Source: a virus
Lineage: Duplodnaviria; Heunggongvirae; Uroviricota; Caudoviricetes
Reading direction: 5' to 3' (one strand)
DNA length: 64,000 bases
IMG/VR virus record: IMGVR_UViG_2648501839_000008
Position 1 is the stretch's first letter; each line of letters begins with the position of its first letter. A program made the translations under genes and the position numbers. A model generated the notes under the pieces. That model was given only the letters and a program-made list of their open reading frames with translations, had not been told where the DNA came from and ran no database searches. Positions 16,701 through 51,012 of this stretch are shown here, one piece after another.

Positions 16701-17345
16701 TTACAGCGCGTCAGTGGGCTTTTTACGCGCTGCGTTTATGCTTATGACGCCAGCTTTTGGACGTGGGTCAACAAGGTTAAGCTCTTCTTCACTGTGGTAT
16801 TCGAGGTCGAACTCACGTTTTACATGTCTGATGTAGATTGCGGTGAGCTGGCTATCTTTGGTCAGGAAGTGTCCGTAGGATTTACGGATCACTTCTTCTA
16901 CCTTTTCGAGTTTCTCACCACCCATACAGAGATGATTAAACCGGCTGTGTTTACGCAACATTTCGTCTACTGGACCTGAGTAAATTTTGTCTACTTTCCC
17001 AAAACGGATGATTTTCCCTGTGTCTGCGGATACAAGGCAAATCAGCTTGTCTGGTGATAAACGATCTCGCCACGTCACACCTGAACGGAGTGTGTTGAAG
17101 TAGGGGGCATCCAATCCGATGATCGGTTTACGAAATGCGAGCAATGGAACGTACCTGATGCAACTGTTTAAATGAAAATTCACACCAGCCTTATCAAGTT
17201 TAATTCTGGTTTCGTAGATCGGGCACTTCGCCGCTATACCGCAGATGTCACAAAGCAACTTCTGCTTATTCAGGTTGGAATTTGATTCGATAGTGTAGGA
17301 GCCGTCTTCAAGACGACGAACCCAGCGCGTGCGTTTTAGATCCAT
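16701..17345 (-). CDS. Hypothetical protein
   Basis: 214-aa ORF, Cys-containing; function unknown. Confidence 0.55.
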   Translation of the reverse strand: MDLKRTRWVRRLEDGSYTIESNSNLNKQKLLCDICGIAAKCPIYETRIKLDKAGVNFHLNSCIRYVPLLAFRKPIIGLDAPYFNTLRSGVTWRDRLSPDKLICLVSADTGKIIRFGKVDKIYSGPVDEMLRKHSRFNHLCMGGEKLEKVEEVIRKSYGHFLTKDSQLTAIYIRHVKREFDLEYHSEEELNLVDPRPKAGVISINAARKKPTDAL

Positions 17346-17423
17346 ATGTCATTTTTCTGTGATTGTTAGCCGAGGCAACGATAACCCACTAGGTGCGCCG
17401 AAGGTAGTAAATGCCTGTTTTAA

Positions 17424-17510
17424 TTATTCACATATCCACAGGATAGATCCTAATAAAGAGATCCATAGATAGATCCTTGTATAGATCAAATAAGATCCCC
17501 GATCGCTGTA
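17424..17510. promoter_or_regulatory. Origin-like region: two tandem DnaA boxes followed by a cluster of about six GATC sites
   Basis: TTATTCACA (17424-17432) and ATATCCACA (17432-17440) match the DnaA box TTATNCACA; GATC recurs about six times over the next 70 bp. Confidence 0.6.
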
Positions 17511-17544
17511 AGCCGCGCCACGACTGGTCTGAAGCCATGTTCAT

Positions 17545-17646
17545 GTATGCTGCCAGCGGTAATTGATAGTCTGTCAACGGTTCGCCGTATGCTGCCAACT
17601 GTTTTTGGTATGCTGCCAGCGGCAAATCAAGTATGCTGTCAGCGGT
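17545..17646 (+). repeat. Upstream iteron set: four direct 16-bp repeats
   Basis: Copies of GTATGCTG(C/T)CAGCGGT at 17545, 17587 (degenerate), 17608 and 17631, all in one orientation. Confidence 0.85.
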
Positions 17647-17666
17647 TGAATGACAAAGGTGTCCAC

Positions 17667-18761
17667 ATGTCCACAAAAAATAAAAAAGGTAAAAATAACA
17701 AAGAAGTAGAAGATAATCTCGACAACTTTGAAGAAGGTTCCCTTGAATTGTACACAGGGGAACTTGTCCCTAATAGCAACAATACAGTCCAACCAATTGC
17801 GTTGATGCGGCTGGGGTTGTTCGTGCCCACGCTCAAGGGGACAAAATACAGCAAGCGTAACAAGCCAAATGAGATCGATGCTTCAAAGGAGCTTGTTCAG
17901 CTCGAAGTAGCCCGTTCTGAAGGCTATTCCGATATCAAGATAACCGGTCCTCGTCTCGACATGGATCATGATTTCAAAACGTGGGTGGGCGTTGTGCGTT
18001 CGCTGGCAGAATACGGCGAACCTAACGGTCGTGTCGAGTTAAGCATCACGAAATTTGCGAAGTTTTGTGGCTATCCATCGTCACAGATCCGCAAAACACT
18101 CCGCGACCGGCTTACAAACAGTCTTTTGAAGATCATGCGTACAACTCTGTCTTTCCAGAGAACGTATGAAGAAAAGAACGTCGACGGCTCTAACAAGATC
18201 TCGCTTCTGATGGTGCACCTCATCAATAGCGTGGACTACAACGAGCAGAAAGATACGGTGGTGTTCTATGCAGAACCGAAGCTGGCCGAACTATATCGCT
18301 TTGACCATAAGGTTCTTTTGCAGTTAAAGGTTATCAATAAGCTACCACGCAAAGAAACAGCACAGGCTCTGTACACCTTCATCGAAAGTCTTCCAACCAA
18401 GCCTGCGCCGGTATCGCTTGCTCGATTGCGTGCGCGACTCAATTTGAGTAGCAGGAATGTCAGCTCGCAGAATCAGACTATACGTAACGGCTTAAAAGCT
18501 CTCCAAGATTTGGGCTATCTCGAATACAGCGAGATTAAGCGTGGGCGGTCGATCTATATCCAGATTCACAGCCGCAATCCAAAACTCAAAGTCGCACCGC
18601 CAAAACCTGAAGACATCGAACCCAAAAAACCAGATGAGAAAGCTGGGGAAATTGATGCCAAACAGAACATTATCAACAAGATAACCGAACTTTCGCAGAA
18701 TTTGACGCCTGAAAATATCAAGATGATTGAGATCCTTTCCAATAGTCTCAAACTGCTTTGA
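17667..18761 (+). CDS. repA: Plasmid replication initiator RepA (P1 RepA-like)
   Basis: NNTVQPIALMRLGLFVP, ITGPRLDMDHDFKTW and YTFIESLP match P1 RepA as recalled. Start set at ATG 17667; the ORF-track start at 17547 would translate the iterons. Confidence 0.85.
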   Translation: MSTKNKKGKNNKEVEDNLDNFEEGSLELYTGELVPNSNNTVQPIALMRLGLFVPTLKGTKYSKRNKPNEIDASKELVQLEVARSEGYSDIKITGPRLDMDHDFKTWVGVVRSLAEYGEPNGRVELSITKFAKFCGYPSSQIRKTLRDRLTNSLLKIMRTTLSFQRTYEEKNVDGSNKISLLMVHLINSVDYNEQKDTVVFYAEPKLAELYRFDHKVLLQLKVINKLPRKETAQALYTFIESLPTKPAPVSLARLRARLNLSSRNVSSQNQTIRNGLKALQDLGYLEYSEIKRGRSIYIQIHSRNPKLKVAPPKPEDIEPKKPDEKAGEIDAKQNIINKITELSQNLTPENIKMIEILSNSLKLL

Positions 18762-19293
18762 TATGCTGTCAGCGGTGAAATGTATGCTATCAGCGGCTAT
18801 TTTTCTGAAAAGTATGCTGTGAACGGTTAAAGATATGCTACCAGCGGTATAGTGAGATGAACGTATGCTGTGAGCGGTAAATCATCTATCACCACTCAAT
18901 GCTCTGTCATACCTCCCCAGTGGTTACTAACCTCGAAGAGTGCATTCCATATAGGTTTGCGCTCACTAACATTCTATTGCTATTGCGCTGATTGCTTGTA
19001 GTGAAAGGCATTTATTGCCTGCTACTCCCTGATAGAACGTATGCTGTCAGCGGTGTTTTATTGAGGAATTTTTGTTTGGATATGCTATCAGCGGTAATTA
19101 ATGGCATATGTCAGACATTCGTATGCTGCCAGCGGTAATTTTGTTCTGGTTATACCCATACCGGTACACATTATTCATGCAATGTCTTAAGTATGCTGCC
19201 AGCGGTAAAAAATCGAGTAAAGTATGCTGTGAGCGGTGAGATAGACTCTCGATATGCTATCAGCGGTAGTTGATTGTGTATGCTGTCAGCGGT
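18762..19293 (+). repeat. Downstream iteron sets: two clusters totalling about 12 direct repeats
   Basis: (G/A)TATGCT(G/A)(T/C)(C/G)A(G/A)CGGT at 18762, 18782, 18812, 18834, 18863, 19039, 19080, 19121, 19191, 19222, 19252, 19278; about 150 bp without repeats separates the clusters. Confidence 0.85.
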
Positions 19294-19309
19294 GACGACT
19301 ATGAAATAT

Positions 19310-19331
19310 GACTGCGGAACGTGCCGCAGTC
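19310..19331. terminator. Hairpin after the minus-strand operon ending at 19341
   Basis: GACTGCGG-AACGTG-CCGCAGTC inverted repeat. Confidence 0.45.
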
Positions 19332-19340
19332 AGTTTGCAT

Positions 19341-19553
19341 TTAGTGTATTTTCTTTAACAGACCCCAAAGTGTTCCGGCTTTTGTAGTCAGTTTTCCTGT
19401 TTCTGGATCGTACATACGCCATTCACGCCGCTGGTGGACGATATACCCATCTTCACGTTCCAGACGCTCAAGAATGCCAGGTTGCTTGAAACCCTTAGCA
19501 CGCCAGTAGCCGCTTGTTTTCTCGATTTCCAGACCTGCCAGTGTTAATGCCAT
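19341..19553 (-). CDS. Hypothetical protein
   Basis: 70-aa ORF, translationally coupled to the upstream gene. Confidence 0.5.
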   Translation of the reverse strand: MALTLAGLEIEKTSGYWRAKGFKQPGILERLEREDGYIVHQRREWRMYDPETGKLTTKAGTLWGLLKKIH

Positions 19554-19888
19554 TATCCAACCTCCTTGCAGTCATCGAAAAGGTAGCTTTGCTGAGAAGC
19601 GTGAACGCCATAGAAGCCCTTGTATTTGTTGTATACGAAGTGGTCTTCTCCGACGCCGGTTAATTTGCCATTACGGTTTGTGAGATATGGGGATGACAAT
19701 ACTCGATCGTCACGCACAACATAGAACTGGTCGCCGCTGTCTACGACCATCGCTCCATATGGTGCTTTTATGACGTCGGTAAGAGCGCCATTCTTAACGT
19801 CGGCTACAGACATTTCACACTGATAAACAGTGGTGTCGGCCACAACGATCGAAGAAAGGAACAACAGCGCGAATGGGATGGCCTTCAT
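19553..19888 (-). CDS. Hypothetical secreted protein
   Basis: N-terminal signal peptide (MKAIPFALLFLSSIVVA); 111 aa. Confidence 0.55.
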   Translation of the reverse strand: MKAIPFALLFLSSIVVADTTVYQCEMSVADVKNGALTDVIKAPYGAMVVDSGDQFYVVRDDRVLSSPYLTNRNGKLTGVGEDHFVYNKYKGFYGVHASQQSYLFDDCKEVG

Positions 19889-35004: not shown

Positions 35005-35391
35005 ATGTCTGACAACAAGATTGAATTTATAGAAAGTCGCTACGCTGCTTTTATCGCAGGGTTGATTGAATCCTCACCTATGAGCCAGGCCCAGATAGCC
35101 AAAACAATTGGGTATAAAAACGCCAACAACCTTTCTTTAATTAAAAGCGGCAAAATTCCTTTGCCTATCGATAAGGTTCGTCCGCTGGCGCTGGCACTGG
35201 GTATTGAGCCAAGTCGTCTTATGATGATGGTGCTGGAAGAACGCCAACCCGAACTCGCAGCATTTTTATACAAAGAAGGCACTGCTCCTCTTAACGAGGA
35301 CGAAAAACAGGTTCTTGCTGCATATAACGAGCGATTCGGTAAAGAGAAAGGCGCATCACAAAAGGTTGTTGAGGCCATAAAGTCTCTATGA
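35005..35391 (+). CDS. HTH XRE-family DNA-binding protein
   Basis: SQAQIAKTIGYKNANNLSLIKSGK helix-turn-helix; convergent with and slightly overlapping the tyrosine recombinase gene. Confidence 0.7.
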   Translation: MSDNKIEFIESRYAAFIAGLIESSPMSQAQIAKTIGYKNANNLSLIKSGKIPLPIDKVRPLALALGIEPSRLMMMVLEERQPELAAFLYKEGTAPLNEDEKQVLAAYNERFGKEKGASQKVVEAIKSL

Positions 35392-36489
35392 AAAATTTAC
35401 ACGAATAAGCTCTGTCGATAGACGATCTCCCTTGAATTTGTGGTCAATTTCGTCTAAATCCGGTTGCTCTACGATTGATGCGATGTACGTCGAGAAACTT
35501 TCTAAGGCGTCTCGCATCTCGTCCATATAATCGTGCCGGTCGTAGACCCGATCTATCCCCTCAAGACTGTGGTTCATGATTTTACGTGATACCTCCTGGC
35601 TTATGCCTAATGCTGGGAAGTAACTACGCGCAGTACGACGCAAATCTCGTGGTGTAAATGGCTCAAGCTCCATCAGTTCTGGTCGTTCCAGGATACGGCG
35701 TAATGCCTGGGCTATTGCCACTTTAGACATCGGAAGATCTTTCCCGATTTTTTTATTCGAAGGCACAAGCCACTGGCTGCCTTTACCATATTCGAATAAC
35801 TCTTCAATGCATGTGCGCATTAATGTGCTTAAAGGCAGAGAATGCTCACGGGCTGATTTGTTTCTCTTGCCTTGATTCCAAACCCCACGCTGGAGGTTGA
35901 ACTCACTTTTTTTAGCCCGCAGTACTTCGTCAGGTCGTCTTGCGGATACAAGACATAGCCTGGCCGCCCATTTTGTACCAGCACACACATTGAAGTAGTC
36001 CCATATATTCCAGAACACCCATACCTCTGCGTCGGTTAGCTTCCGCTCGCGAGGTGTGGGCTTTGCGCCACCGGCAACTTTGTTAAGTGACATATCGTTT
36101 AACGGTGACACGTCGATCATCCCCTGGAAGGCGCACCAGCTGAGGAACTGCTTCATCAGAGAGAAAACGCGGCGACCCATAACAATTTTGCCATCCAGTA
36201 TTAGTGGGTTGACCAGTTGGTTCACCATGAACCTATTAATATCACTTACTTTTACATCGGCAATGTGCGGCAAAACATGTATCAAAATACAATGAACAGC
36301 GATCTCTGGCCGACGTCTTGTTATCAGCAGAGATAAGCGAGTGAATAACATGAATGCGTCCGAGAATCTCATGTCATTGCTGACCTGGGAGATCATAACG
36401 GCCTGCATTTGAGATGCTCTTTCGAGATACTCAATCGCCTCTTTTGAGGTGTTCTCCGCAGCGCGTGCTCTGTCAAAGCTATTTTTCAT
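35386..36489 (-). CDS. Tyrosine recombinase / integrase-family protein
   Basis: C-terminal RRTARSY ... MNHSLEGIDRVYDRHDY contains the R..H..R..Y catalytic pattern. Confidence 0.8.
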   Translation of the reverse strand: MKNSFDRARAAENTSKEAIEYLERASQMQAVMISQVSNDMRFSDAFMLFTRLSLLITRRRPEIAVHCILIHVLPHIADVKVSDINRFMVNQLVNPLILDGKIVMGRRVFSLMKQFLSWCAFQGMIDVSPLNDMSLNKVAGGAKPTPRERKLTDAEVWVFWNIWDYFNVCAGTKWAARLCLVSARRPDEVLRAKKSEFNLQRGVWNQGKRNKSAREHSLPLSTLMRTCIEELFEYGKGSQWLVPSNKKIGKDLPMSKVAIAQALRRILERPELMELEPFTPRDLRRTARSYFPALGISQEVSRKIMNHSLEGIDRVYDRHDYMDEMRDALESFSTYIASIVEQPDLDEIDHKFKGDRLSTELIRVNFS

Positions 36490-38574: not shown

Positions 38575-38660
38575 TGGCGGAGAGTAATGGAATCGAACCA
38601 TCATCGTTTGCACAATGGGACGGTTTTCAAGACCGCTTGAGCACCATGCTCCCTACTCTC
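38575..38660 (-). tRNA. tRNA-Ser (anticodon UGA), type II with long variable arm
   Basis: Reverse complement folds by eye: acceptor GGAGAGT/ACTCTCC, anticodon loop CUUGAAA, T-loop GGTTCGATTCC, 3' GCCA. Confidence 0.6.
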
Positions 38661-38981
38661 CAGCTATTGTGATGGTCGGTGCTGAACTCCGACACAGGGT
38701 TGTAGCAAGCCCCGCAAAGCGCGCACTACTGTAGTTGCGGCACATCAGCCTGTGCATTCATCACAATGGTAAGATCACTACCTTTCGACCAGTCATTGTG
38801 CACATGAACGACGATTAACCGTAATGATATTATCGTTGTGTTGTGAAGCCAGATGCTTATCTTCTGGTTGCTTCAAAGAGCTGCACTTCCTCACAACGGT
38901 AAGAGCACTGGTCTGACTCTATCGATTTACGGCCTTGTGGGTCAGTATCGCCGATTCGCCCAATGCTCTTACCTGTTGTGT

Positions 38982-39057
38982 TGGTGCCGGTTAACGGACT
39001 TGAACCGCTGGCCATTCGCTTACAAAACGACTGCTCTACCAACTGAGCTAAACCGGC
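38982..39057 (-). tRNA. tRNA-Thr (anticodon UGU), tentative
   Basis: Reverse complement GCCGGTTTAGCTCAGTTGGTAGAGC...GGTTCAAGTCC...AACCGGCACCA; anticodon loop UUUGUAA, with one mismatch in the anticodon stem. Confidence 0.55.
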
Positions 39058-39061
39058 AATT

Positions 39062-39148
39062 TGGTGGGGAGTGATGGAGTCGAACCACCCGAGTCGCCAT
39101 GACAGTAGATTTACAGTCTACACCGCTACCTCTACGGACTAACTCCCC
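39062..39148 (-). tRNA. tRNA-Tyr (anticodon GUA), type II
   Basis: Reverse complement GGGGAGT...GTAGACTGTAAATCTAC...GGTTCGACTCC...ACTCCCCACCA. Confidence 0.6.
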
Positions 39149-39153
39149 TAAAT

Positions 39154-39228
39154 TGGCGATGGTGGGTGGATTCGAACCACCGACCAGTTGGTTAACAGCC
39201 AACTGCTCTACCGCTGAGCTACACCATC
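39154..39228 (-). tRNA. tRNA-Asn (anticodon GUU)
   Basis: Reverse complement GATGGTGTAGCTCAGCGGTAGAGC..GTTGGCTGTTAACCAAC..GGTTCGAATCC..CACCATCGCCA. Confidence 0.65.
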
Positions 39229-49984: not shown

Positions 49985-50344
49985 TCAACCTTTCTTCATC
50001 AACTCTCGTTTAATTTCATCGGTACGCATCGTAACGTCGGCAGCTGTGATCGCCTCGTTAAGCTTCACGATGTCCTCGATTTCCTGCGGTGACTTCTCTG
50101 CCAGATGGAAAATGGCTGCTCGAATCACGTCAGAACGAGTGAACTTCTCGAAGCGAGGGATGAACTTCATCATCTCCAGCAGTTCGAAGTATTCGTCTTC
50201 CAGTGACATTGTGCGGCTTTTAATTTTCTCTTTGCCACGAGTCGGGCGTCCCTGTGGTCTGACTGGTTGGCGCAAAGGAGTTGTGTTCTTAGCCGGTGCA
50301 TCAGGCTCTTTGCGCTTTGCTAGGTCACCCATTTTCATGGACAT
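49985..50344 (-). CDS. Putative centromere-binding partition protein (ParG-like ribbon-helix-helix)
   Basis: 119-aa basic protein translationally coupled to ParA; C-terminal region RSDVIRAAIFHL is compatible with an RHH fold. Confidence 0.5.
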   Translation of the reverse strand: MSMKMGDLAKRKEPDAPAKNTTPLRQPVRPQGRPTRGKEKIKSRTMSLEDEYFELLEMMKFIPRFEKFTRSDVIRAAIFHLAEKSPQEIEDIVKLNEAITAADVTMRTDEIKRELMKKG

Positions 50345-51012
50345 TATTCTTCTTCCTCCAGACTCAACAGATAATCTACAAATTCTTCAAACTCGGCTTC
50401 AGCCTTTTTGTCGCGCTCGCTACCGGTCATTTCGAAGATAGAACGACCAGACTCTTCCGCATCATCGTAGACGTTGCGGTTATATAGATTGACTGGCGCA
50501 GACTCGATGCCAAACGTCTCGACAATCTCTTTAGCCGCCAGAATGCGAGACACTTGTGATGGCAAAGCCGGGCACTGGTTCATGACCGCGCGGACCTTCA
50601 CTTTATCGTTTACATTACGAACATTGTCGATAATAGGATCGATGTCACGCAGAGATTTCAAATCACGACGCTTAGGACGAAGCGGGATAATGATAACGTC
50701 GGCCATCAGCATCGCTTGTCGCTGAATTTCGGAGTCAAAGCCACCAGCATCTACCACTACAAACTCAGCTCTACCCTGAAGCGATTTTAGGTGCTTAATG
50801 ATGTCATCCTGGACGTATGCAAAAGGAATCAGCTCAAGGTCTTCGTTCTGTCGACGGTCTTCACACCAGCTCGTTGTCGTGCGCTGAATATCTATATCGG
50901 TAATATAAACCTTCTTCTTCTTTTTGACTTTCAGGCAAACGGCAATTTGCTGGGCAACGGTGGATTTGCCAGGCCCGCCCTTTGTGCCGCCAACCACAAA
51001 GATCTTGGTCAT
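50344..51012 (-). CDS. parA: ParA/ParF-type partition ATPase
   Basis: Deviant Walker A GGTKGGPGKST at the N-terminus; 222 aa (small ParA class). Confidence 0.9.
   Translation of the reverse strand: MTKIFVVGGTKGGPGKSTVAQQIAVCLKVKKKKKVYITDIDIQRTTTSWCEDRRQNEDLELIPFAYVQDDIIKHLKSLQGRAEFVVVDAGGFDSEIQRQAMLMADVIIIPLRPKRRDLKSLRDIDPIIDNVRNVNDKVKVRAVMNQCPALPSQVSRILAAKEIVETFGIESAPVNLYNRNVYDDAEESGRSIFEMTGSERDKKAEAEFEEFVDYLLSLEEEE

Follow-up and report, generated by a model that had tools for sequence, protein, structure and literature searches.

A predicted RepFIB/P1-family replicon with a conserved non-iteron core in a sequence assigned to the SSU5-like phage-plasmids of Escherichia coli

The plasmid replicon of phage P1 is a system in which Dam, SeqA and handcuffing have recognized roles and in which RepA is activated by DnaK, DnaJ and GrpE. 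In phage-plasmids of the SSU5 type, the RepA and ParB genes serve as typing markers, and the Klebsiella relatives, named IncpKPHS1, were reported to have four iterons downstream of repA and a RepA with no known domain (PMC6735626). Opening of the P1 origin was found to be carried out by DnaA together with RepA (PMC5043065). Copy number and heteroresistance in phage-plasmids are the subject of a 2026 preprint (10.64898/2026.08.19.745698), in which RepA is mentioned 41 times and SSU5 also, and iterons never. Here we describe the locus at positions 17424-19293 of a 64,000-nucleotide stretch of viral DNA (IMG/VR record IMGVR_UViG_2648501839_000008), which is referred to below, over its whole length, as the window. 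This locus is very probably the plasmid-prophage replicon of an SSU5-like phage-plasmid, with an origin that is of the theta type, is controlled by iterons and belongs to the RepFIB/P1 family. The replicon type is already catalogued, its family is among the best studied of all plasmid replicons and it holds nothing new in principle; its only loose end is a conserved core in the spacer between two downstream iteron arrays. Both statements on the Klebsiella relatives, the iteron count (which was incomplete) and the lack of a known domain, are superseded by the data presented below.

Judged from its sequence, the window belongs to an SSU5-like phage-plasmid of E. coli. The segment 17300-19400 occurs in E. 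coli plasmid pRM13322 (NZ_CP050499.1) at 100% identity and in more than 60 Escherichia/Shigella plasmids of ~110 kb at 99%, p09EL50 of E. coli O104:H4 among them. In Escherichia phage PhiR41_1, the identity was 98.6%. The replicon (rep_cluster_488) is the only one that could be typed in circular plasmids with complete sequences (62 kb and 109 kb). For example, p3RM15116 of E. albertii (62 kb) and records like it, circular and ~62 kb in size, carry it at 99.2% identity as the sole typed replicon. These smaller plasmids may derive from the 110-kb phage-plasmid by deletion, and may be defective.

A preliminary description of this DNA had placed repA between two sets of iterons, and we found the open reading frame (ORF) to be real. 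RefSeq/PGAP annotation gives it a longer start at 17547 (404 aa), which falls inside the first iteron; the true start is 17667, in agreement with the PhiR41_1 annotation and with the alignments, and yields a protein of 364 aa. Alignment to P1 RepA, which had been suggested as a check, gave 46% identity by BLASTP (E 4e-86) over P1 residues 20-284 of 286. The identity was 52% to the F-type RepFIB RepA, 47% to SSU5 RepA, 85% to the Klebsiella RepA and 85-88% over the Klebsiella and Cronobacter relatives. The protein also matched Pfam Rep3_N (3.9e-9, above cut-off) and phrog_775 (4.6e-133), and its relatives occur in at least 5000 plasmid records. Its C-terminal tail of ~55 aa is also present in SSU5 and RepFIB and is not found in P1. 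There was no match to RepA among NCBIfam models or in PDB sequence and profile searches, and a single-sequence AlphaFold model had a pLDDT of 39, unusable for fold comparison. These comparisons place RepA in the Rep_3 class of initiators homologous to P1 and RepFIB RepA, with a predicted winged-helix fold. In RefSeq phage records and PHROGs, the P1 RepA family is mislabelled "replication helicase".

Upstream of repA, the elements of a P1-type origin could be recognized (P1 features were taken from the annotation of AF234172, except that the orientation of the incA iterons was read from the sequence). The two DnaA boxes previously noted there are indeed present and form a tandem, in which box 1 (TTATTCACA, 17424-17432) matches the consensus at 9/9 positions and box 2 (ATATCCACA, 17432-17440) at 8/9. 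The window shows no excess of single DnaA boxes (58 found versus 68 expected); therefore, what gives these two weight is that they stand in tandem and align with the P1 DnaA site. The boxes are followed by exactly six GATC sites within 59 bp (17446, 17460, 17472, 17484, 17494 and 17501; span 17446-17504), where about six had been counted. This is the densest GATC cluster of the window, and the maximum across 300 first-order Markov simulations was 5 per 60 bp. The region containing these sites is probably the unwinding element as well as the target of Dam and SeqA. The G+C-rich box that comes next is near-identical in P1 (GCCGCGCCACGTCTGG) and in every relative aligned. Overall, the DNA of this left part of the origin was 70% identical to SSU5 and 77-80% identical to the Salmonella, Cronobacter and Klebsiella relatives.

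We searched for the iteron core TATGCTGYCAGCGGT, with up to 3 mismatches, in the whole 64 kb and in shuffled sequences. The search yielded 19 matches versus 2.4 expected, a number reached in 0 of 100 shuffles. All but two of them (17/19) were located within 17546-19293, on the + strand throughout, and the consensus of these 17 copies is RTATGCTGYCAGCGGT. Five iterons precede repA, not four as counted earlier; the lower count is explained by the degenerate second (17567; 3 mismatches) and third (17588; 2 mismatches) copies. The Klebsiella and Cronobacter relatives also have five origin iterons in the same register, and in Klebsiella all copies have 0-1 mismatch. A putative repA promoter overlaps iterons 4 and 5. 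In addition, two weak DnaA-box-like octamers (TGTCCACA) lie over the repA start codon at 17661-17676, a position at which Klebsiella and Salmonella relatives have a better box, GTATCCACA. These octamers may correspond to the right-hand DnaA boxes of P1 oriR.

Downstream of repA, the preliminary description had listed about twelve iterons in two clusters, and the number is exactly twelve (5 + 7), all of them direct repeats. The first of these directly abuts the repA stop codon, as in P1 incA, and spacings of 21, 30 and 41 bp correspond to approximately 2, 3 and 4 helical turns, again as in P1. The number of control iterons varies from 8 to 12 in nature. PhiR41_1, a phage whose record gives E. 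coli K-12 MG1655 as the host, has an 87-bp iteron-to-iteron deletion relative to window positions 19192-19278, by which exactly three distal iterons were lost. The Klebsiella lineage has 8-9 control iterons, all proximal, and the distal cluster is absent. Such variation is the behavior expected of a dispensable control locus, and by analogy with P1 incA the arrays would function in control. We scored the architecture in 45 loci with enough flanking sequence (44 fetched relatives and this window). The order iterons-repA-iterons-core-(iterons) was kept in 45/45, with 5-9 proximal and 0-7 distal iterons: 5-repA-5-core-7 in Escherichia (n = 25, including this window), 5-repA-8/9-core in Klebsiella (n = 14), 5-repA-6-core-5 in Cronobacter (n = 3), 4-repA-5-core-6 in the Salmonella AnCo3 type (n = 2) and 5-repA-5-core-4 in PhiR41_1 (n = 1). 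Thus, the core is the constant element and the distal iteron cluster the variable one. It should be noted that in the record of Klebsiella phage pJN2-26 two RepA iterons around repA (1378-1397 and 2648-2667) are labelled attR and attL; these labels are an annotation artefact from direct repeats.

Table 1. Features of the replicon and related loci, in window coordinates
Feature	Position	Strand	Details
Phage-type N6-adenine DNA methyltransferase ORF, 197 aa	1721-2311	-	Gene 1718-2311; PF05869 1.5e-37; TIGR01712 above cut-off
Two tandem DnaA boxes, one base in common	17424-17440	+	Aligned with annotated P1 oriR DnaA site
GATC-heptamer region	17441-17510	.	AT 63%; 4/6 GATC sites within WAGATCM heptamers; aligned with five annotated P1 Dam sites
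G+C-rich box GCCGCGCCACGACTGG	17512-17527	.	Between GATC repeats and iterons
Five origin iterons (incC-like)	17546-17646	+	Starts 17546, 17567, 17588, 17609, 17632; spacing 21, 21, 21, 23 bp
Putative repA promoter, TTGGTA-18 nt-AAGTAT	17605-17634	+	Overlaps iterons 4 and 5; located by alignment with annotated P1 PrepA, weak (7/12)
repA, predicted RepFIB/P1-family initiator, 364 aa	17667-18761	+	Homology searches and alignments
Proximal control array, five direct iterons	18762-18878	+	Starts 18762, 18783, 18813, 18834, 18864; spacing 21, 30, 21, 30 bp
Conserved non-iteron core, 56 bp	18915-18970	+	Two direct ~13-bp repeats of about AGTGGTYACTAAC, 18919-18931 and 18958-18970, 39 bp apart
Distal control array, seven direct iterons	19040-19293	+	Starts 19040, 19081, 19122, 19192, 19223, 19253, 19279; spacing 41, 41, 70, 31, 30, 26 bp
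Hairpin, 9-bp stem, terminator-like on both strands	19309-19332	.	Between replicon and convergent 70-aa gene
ParA-like partition ATPase (50344-51012) and 119-aa partner (49985-50344)	49985-51012	-	31 kb from replicon

By analogy with P1, host DnaA would bind the tandem boxes and RepA monomers the five phased iterons, and DnaA and RepA would open the adjacent AT-rich GATC-heptamer region. Opening would need full methylation, and the hemimethylated GATC region would be sequestered by SeqA. RepA might also repress its own gene through the putative promoter that lies within the iterons. The twelve downstream iterons would keep the copy number low by titration of RepA and by RepA-mediated pairing (handcuffing) with the origin iterons, in cis and in trans. 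Autonomous replication, Dam dependence and handcuffing are predicted on the same basis. The window does contain the dam-like methyltransferase gene that had been noted in it. It is possible that the element supplies its own methylation of the origin GATC sites; this would not be needed, as the E. coli hosts are Dam+ anyway.

The spacer between the two control arrays had been described as about 150 bp (18880-19030) without iterons and unexplained. The iteron-free stretch is real and amounts to 161 bp (18879-19039), but it is not empty, as it contains the 56-bp conserved core. A BLAST search of plasmids with the spacer yielded 127 records. In Salmonella AnCo3 and Cronobacter, only the central 60 bp still match (78-83%), and an alignment of five lineages showed an island, CCCCAGTGGTYACTAACCT ... 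GCAT ... GGTTNGNGNTYACTAAC, between flanks that could not be aligned. The second repeat of the core reads AGTGGTTACTAAC in many Klebsiella copies, one base off the first repeat, and is degenerate in E. coli. The 17-mer CCAGTGGTYACTAACCT was detected in 57 IMG/VR contigs, of which 56 represent this replicon, with one copy each and in one orientation; the match in the remaining contig is a chance one inside a coding region. The core is present in Escherichia, Salmonella, Klebsiella and Cronobacter relatives. SSU5 also keeps it (AGTGGTTACAAAC ... AGTGGTCACTGGG), after four proximal iterons, even though its iterons are unrelated. The core is missing from P1, from the P1-like phage JK004 and from F-type RepFIB.

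Several known types of element were considered for the core. No further copies occur in the 64-kb window, in which GGTYACTAAC is found once and TYACTAAC at both core sites and one other place; this argues against a set of phage repressor operators. A parS function was rejected, as no similar repeats are found beside parA. An RNA element was rejected as well: RNAalifold gave -4 kcal/mol with one compensatory pair only, and an Rfam search of 17300-19600 at a permissive threshold yielded no match. The promoter scan detected no conserved promoter in the spacer, the single match (18910-18881, minus strand) being outside the conserved part. With regard to a Tus-Ter barrier, the invariant core of Ter sites, GTTGTAAC, was compared with repeat 1 (GTGGTTAC, two mismatches; GTGGTCAC in Klebsiella/Cronobacter) and repeat 2 (GCGCTCAC), and the candidate was rejected. 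More generally, none of the consensus sequences that we compared by eye (Tus/Ter, DnaA box, IHF, CRP, LexA, SlmA and MatP) fits all lineages.

Several points weigh against the proposed mode of replication. The 12 control iterons are all direct, versus 9 in P1 incA (3 direct and 6 inverted). A scan with consensus promoters revealed no strong repA promoter and did not pick up the TTGGTA-18-AAGTAT sequence. The GC skew does not switch at the origin, and it is uninformative because gene orientation dominates it. We found no experiment on this replicon in the literature that could be read. Finally, the element encodes its own helicase, primase and DNA polymerase III (Pol III) alpha, and therefore a second, lytic origin must exist elsewhere. 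With a complete phage replication set in the window, and with repA linked to maintenance by no experiment, the replicon could be viewed as a vestige, with lysogenic maintenance provided by the phage-type genes (DnaB-like helicase, primase and Pol III alpha) from another origin. We regard this as very improbable, since the origin elements and repA are all intact and have been conserved, at 77-88% identity, in four genera, the 62-kb and 109-kb circular plasmids have no other typed replicon, and 17 phased iterons would not persist in a vestige. A different possibility concerns the distal cluster, which, with or without the core, might be a second origin or a centromere-like pairing site and not serve copy control. 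Its spacing of ~41 bp versus 21/30 bp in the proximal array would fit such a role, as would the distant partition genes for which no centromere was identified, and SSU5 demonstrates that whole origin modules can duplicate. However, tandem DnaA boxes, a GATC cluster and a G+C box are all missing from the distal cluster, the cluster is absent in the Klebsiella lineage and reduced from 7 to 4 copies in PhiR41_1, and the same 31/41-bp spacing occurs in P1 incA. It is therefore improbable that the distal iterons act in this way, and a predicted role in copy control is preferred.

As to the core, it is possible, although we think it rather unlikely, that it has no function today and is the neutral relic of an older kind of iteron. 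Consistent with such an origin, its first repeat (CAGTGGTTA), when reverse-complemented, is exactly the 5' half of the SSU5 iteron (TAACCACTG), and the repeat matches the 3' half of the replicon's own iteron (CAGCGGTAA) at 7/9 positions; when up to 2 mismatches are allowed, a 9-mer is expected ~0.4 times per 160 bp by chance, and this half-iteron likeness is near chance. A relic is difficult to reconcile with ~56 bp that can be aligned in five lineages between unalignable flanks, with the single copy and single orientation in 56/56 replicon-associated IMG/VR contigs that have the motif, and with retention of the core in SSU5 despite a RepA of 47% identity and replaced iterons. As the core has stayed constant through a change of iterons, its most likely role is to bind some factor that is not the iteron-reading surface of RepA. 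We can only speculate, with considerable doubt, that it is an undescribed cis-acting module specific to replicons of SSU5-type phage-plasmids, a candidate site for a host or phage protein or for a RepA mode that does not read iterons, which would set the geometry of pairing between array and origin or couple copy control to the phage life cycle.

The surrounding genes form an SSU5-like set: RecA-like, SbcCD-like, gp32-like single-stranded DNA-binding protein, Pol III alpha, DnaB-like helicase, primase and ligase; a ribonucleotide reductase and a thymidylate synthase; a tyrosine recombinase and a ParA-like ATPase; and a tRNA cluster. This cluster (38575-39228, - strand) is situated in an ORF-poor stretch and has four genes, for Ser(tga), Thr(tgt), Tyr(gta) and Asn(gtt), and an Rfam scan of the whole window detected tRNAs only. 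On the left, the origin is adjoined by a divergent ORF (16701-17345, - strand) for a 214-aa Cys-containing protein that matches phrog_2105 and had no Pfam match. In SSU5 and in the plasmid relatives from Escherichia, Salmonella, Klebsiella and Cronobacter, the same ORF adjoins the origin; in the P1-like Cronobacter phage JK004 it does not. In phage Cyrano it is labelled as an ASCH-domain protein. On the right, a 70-aa ORF (19341-19553, - strand; phrog_804) is convergent on the replicon and is annotated as "Cre-associated protein" in SSU5 and pJN2-26; the tyrosine recombinase of the element (35386-36489) is 16 kb away from it. The immediate downstream neighbors of the replicon are small convergent ORFs, and parA, parB and parS do not adjoin it.

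These data correct the annotation of very common ~110-kb phage-plasmids of E. coli and Shigella, some of which carry CTX-M-15, with regard to the repA start, the origin map and the iterons. It is predicted that elements with the iteron RTATGCTGYCAGCGGT exclude each other and do not exclude SSU5/pHCM2, P1 or IncFIB plasmids. The control arrays are also the place where copy-up variants could arise, and one natural variant already is without three distal iterons.

Among the known systems, SSU5/pHCM2-type elements and Klebsiella IncpKPHS1 share with the window the flanking genes (the 214-aa ORF upstream and the 70-aa "Cre-associated" ORF downstream) and the core. The Klebsiella lineage, with a RepA 85% identical and the same iteron, differs in that its 8-9 control iterons are all located before the core. 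SSU5 differs in its iteron (AACCACTGTAGAGAG), its inverted distal iterons and its two tandem origin modules. These oriR-like modules are located upstream of SSU5 repA (755-990 and 1135-1440); the distal one, which carries DnaA boxes, six GATC sites and five iterons, is intact, whereas the proximal one has lost most GATC sites (GAACC, GACCC) and one DnaA box. Outside the SSU5 group, the closest initiator is that of RepFIB (IncF, F/P307 type), at 52% identity with the C-terminal tail included. In RepFIB, iterons also flank repA on both sides and GATC sites are found upstream; however, its iteron is ATAAGCTGTAG..., its downstream iterons are mostly inverted, the core motif is missing, and it is carried by conjugative plasmids and not by a phage.

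The likeness to P1 (oriR/incC-repA-incA; IncY) is in the order of elements: tandem DnaA boxes, GATC heptamers, a G+C box, five iterons at 21-bp phase, repA and an array that begins at the stop codon. The left part of the origin (DnaA boxes, GATC heptamers and the box GCCGCGCCACG(A/T)CTGG) was identical at 87/132 positions (66%), whereas the iteron part showed 41% identity with the phasing kept (21, 21, 21 and 22 in P1 incC). On the other hand, the P1 iteron (GATGTGTGCTGGAGGGAAA) is unrelated in sequence, P1 has 5 GATC sites versus 6 here, parA directly follows P1 incA whereas the partition genes are 31 kb off in the window, the window has a 161-bp spacer with a conserved core, and its RepA has ~30 extra N-terminal and ~55 extra C-terminal residues. 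Thus, the P1-type organization proposed in the preliminary description was borne out in RepA homology, origin elements, 21-bp phasing and the array at the stop codon, but not in the orientation of the control iterons or the position of par, and RepFIB (52%) is closer than P1. As the direct control iterons, the distant par genes and the RepFIB-like tail differ from P1, the replicon, as judged by these comparisons, is best called a member of the RepFIB/P1 family and not a strict copy of P1.

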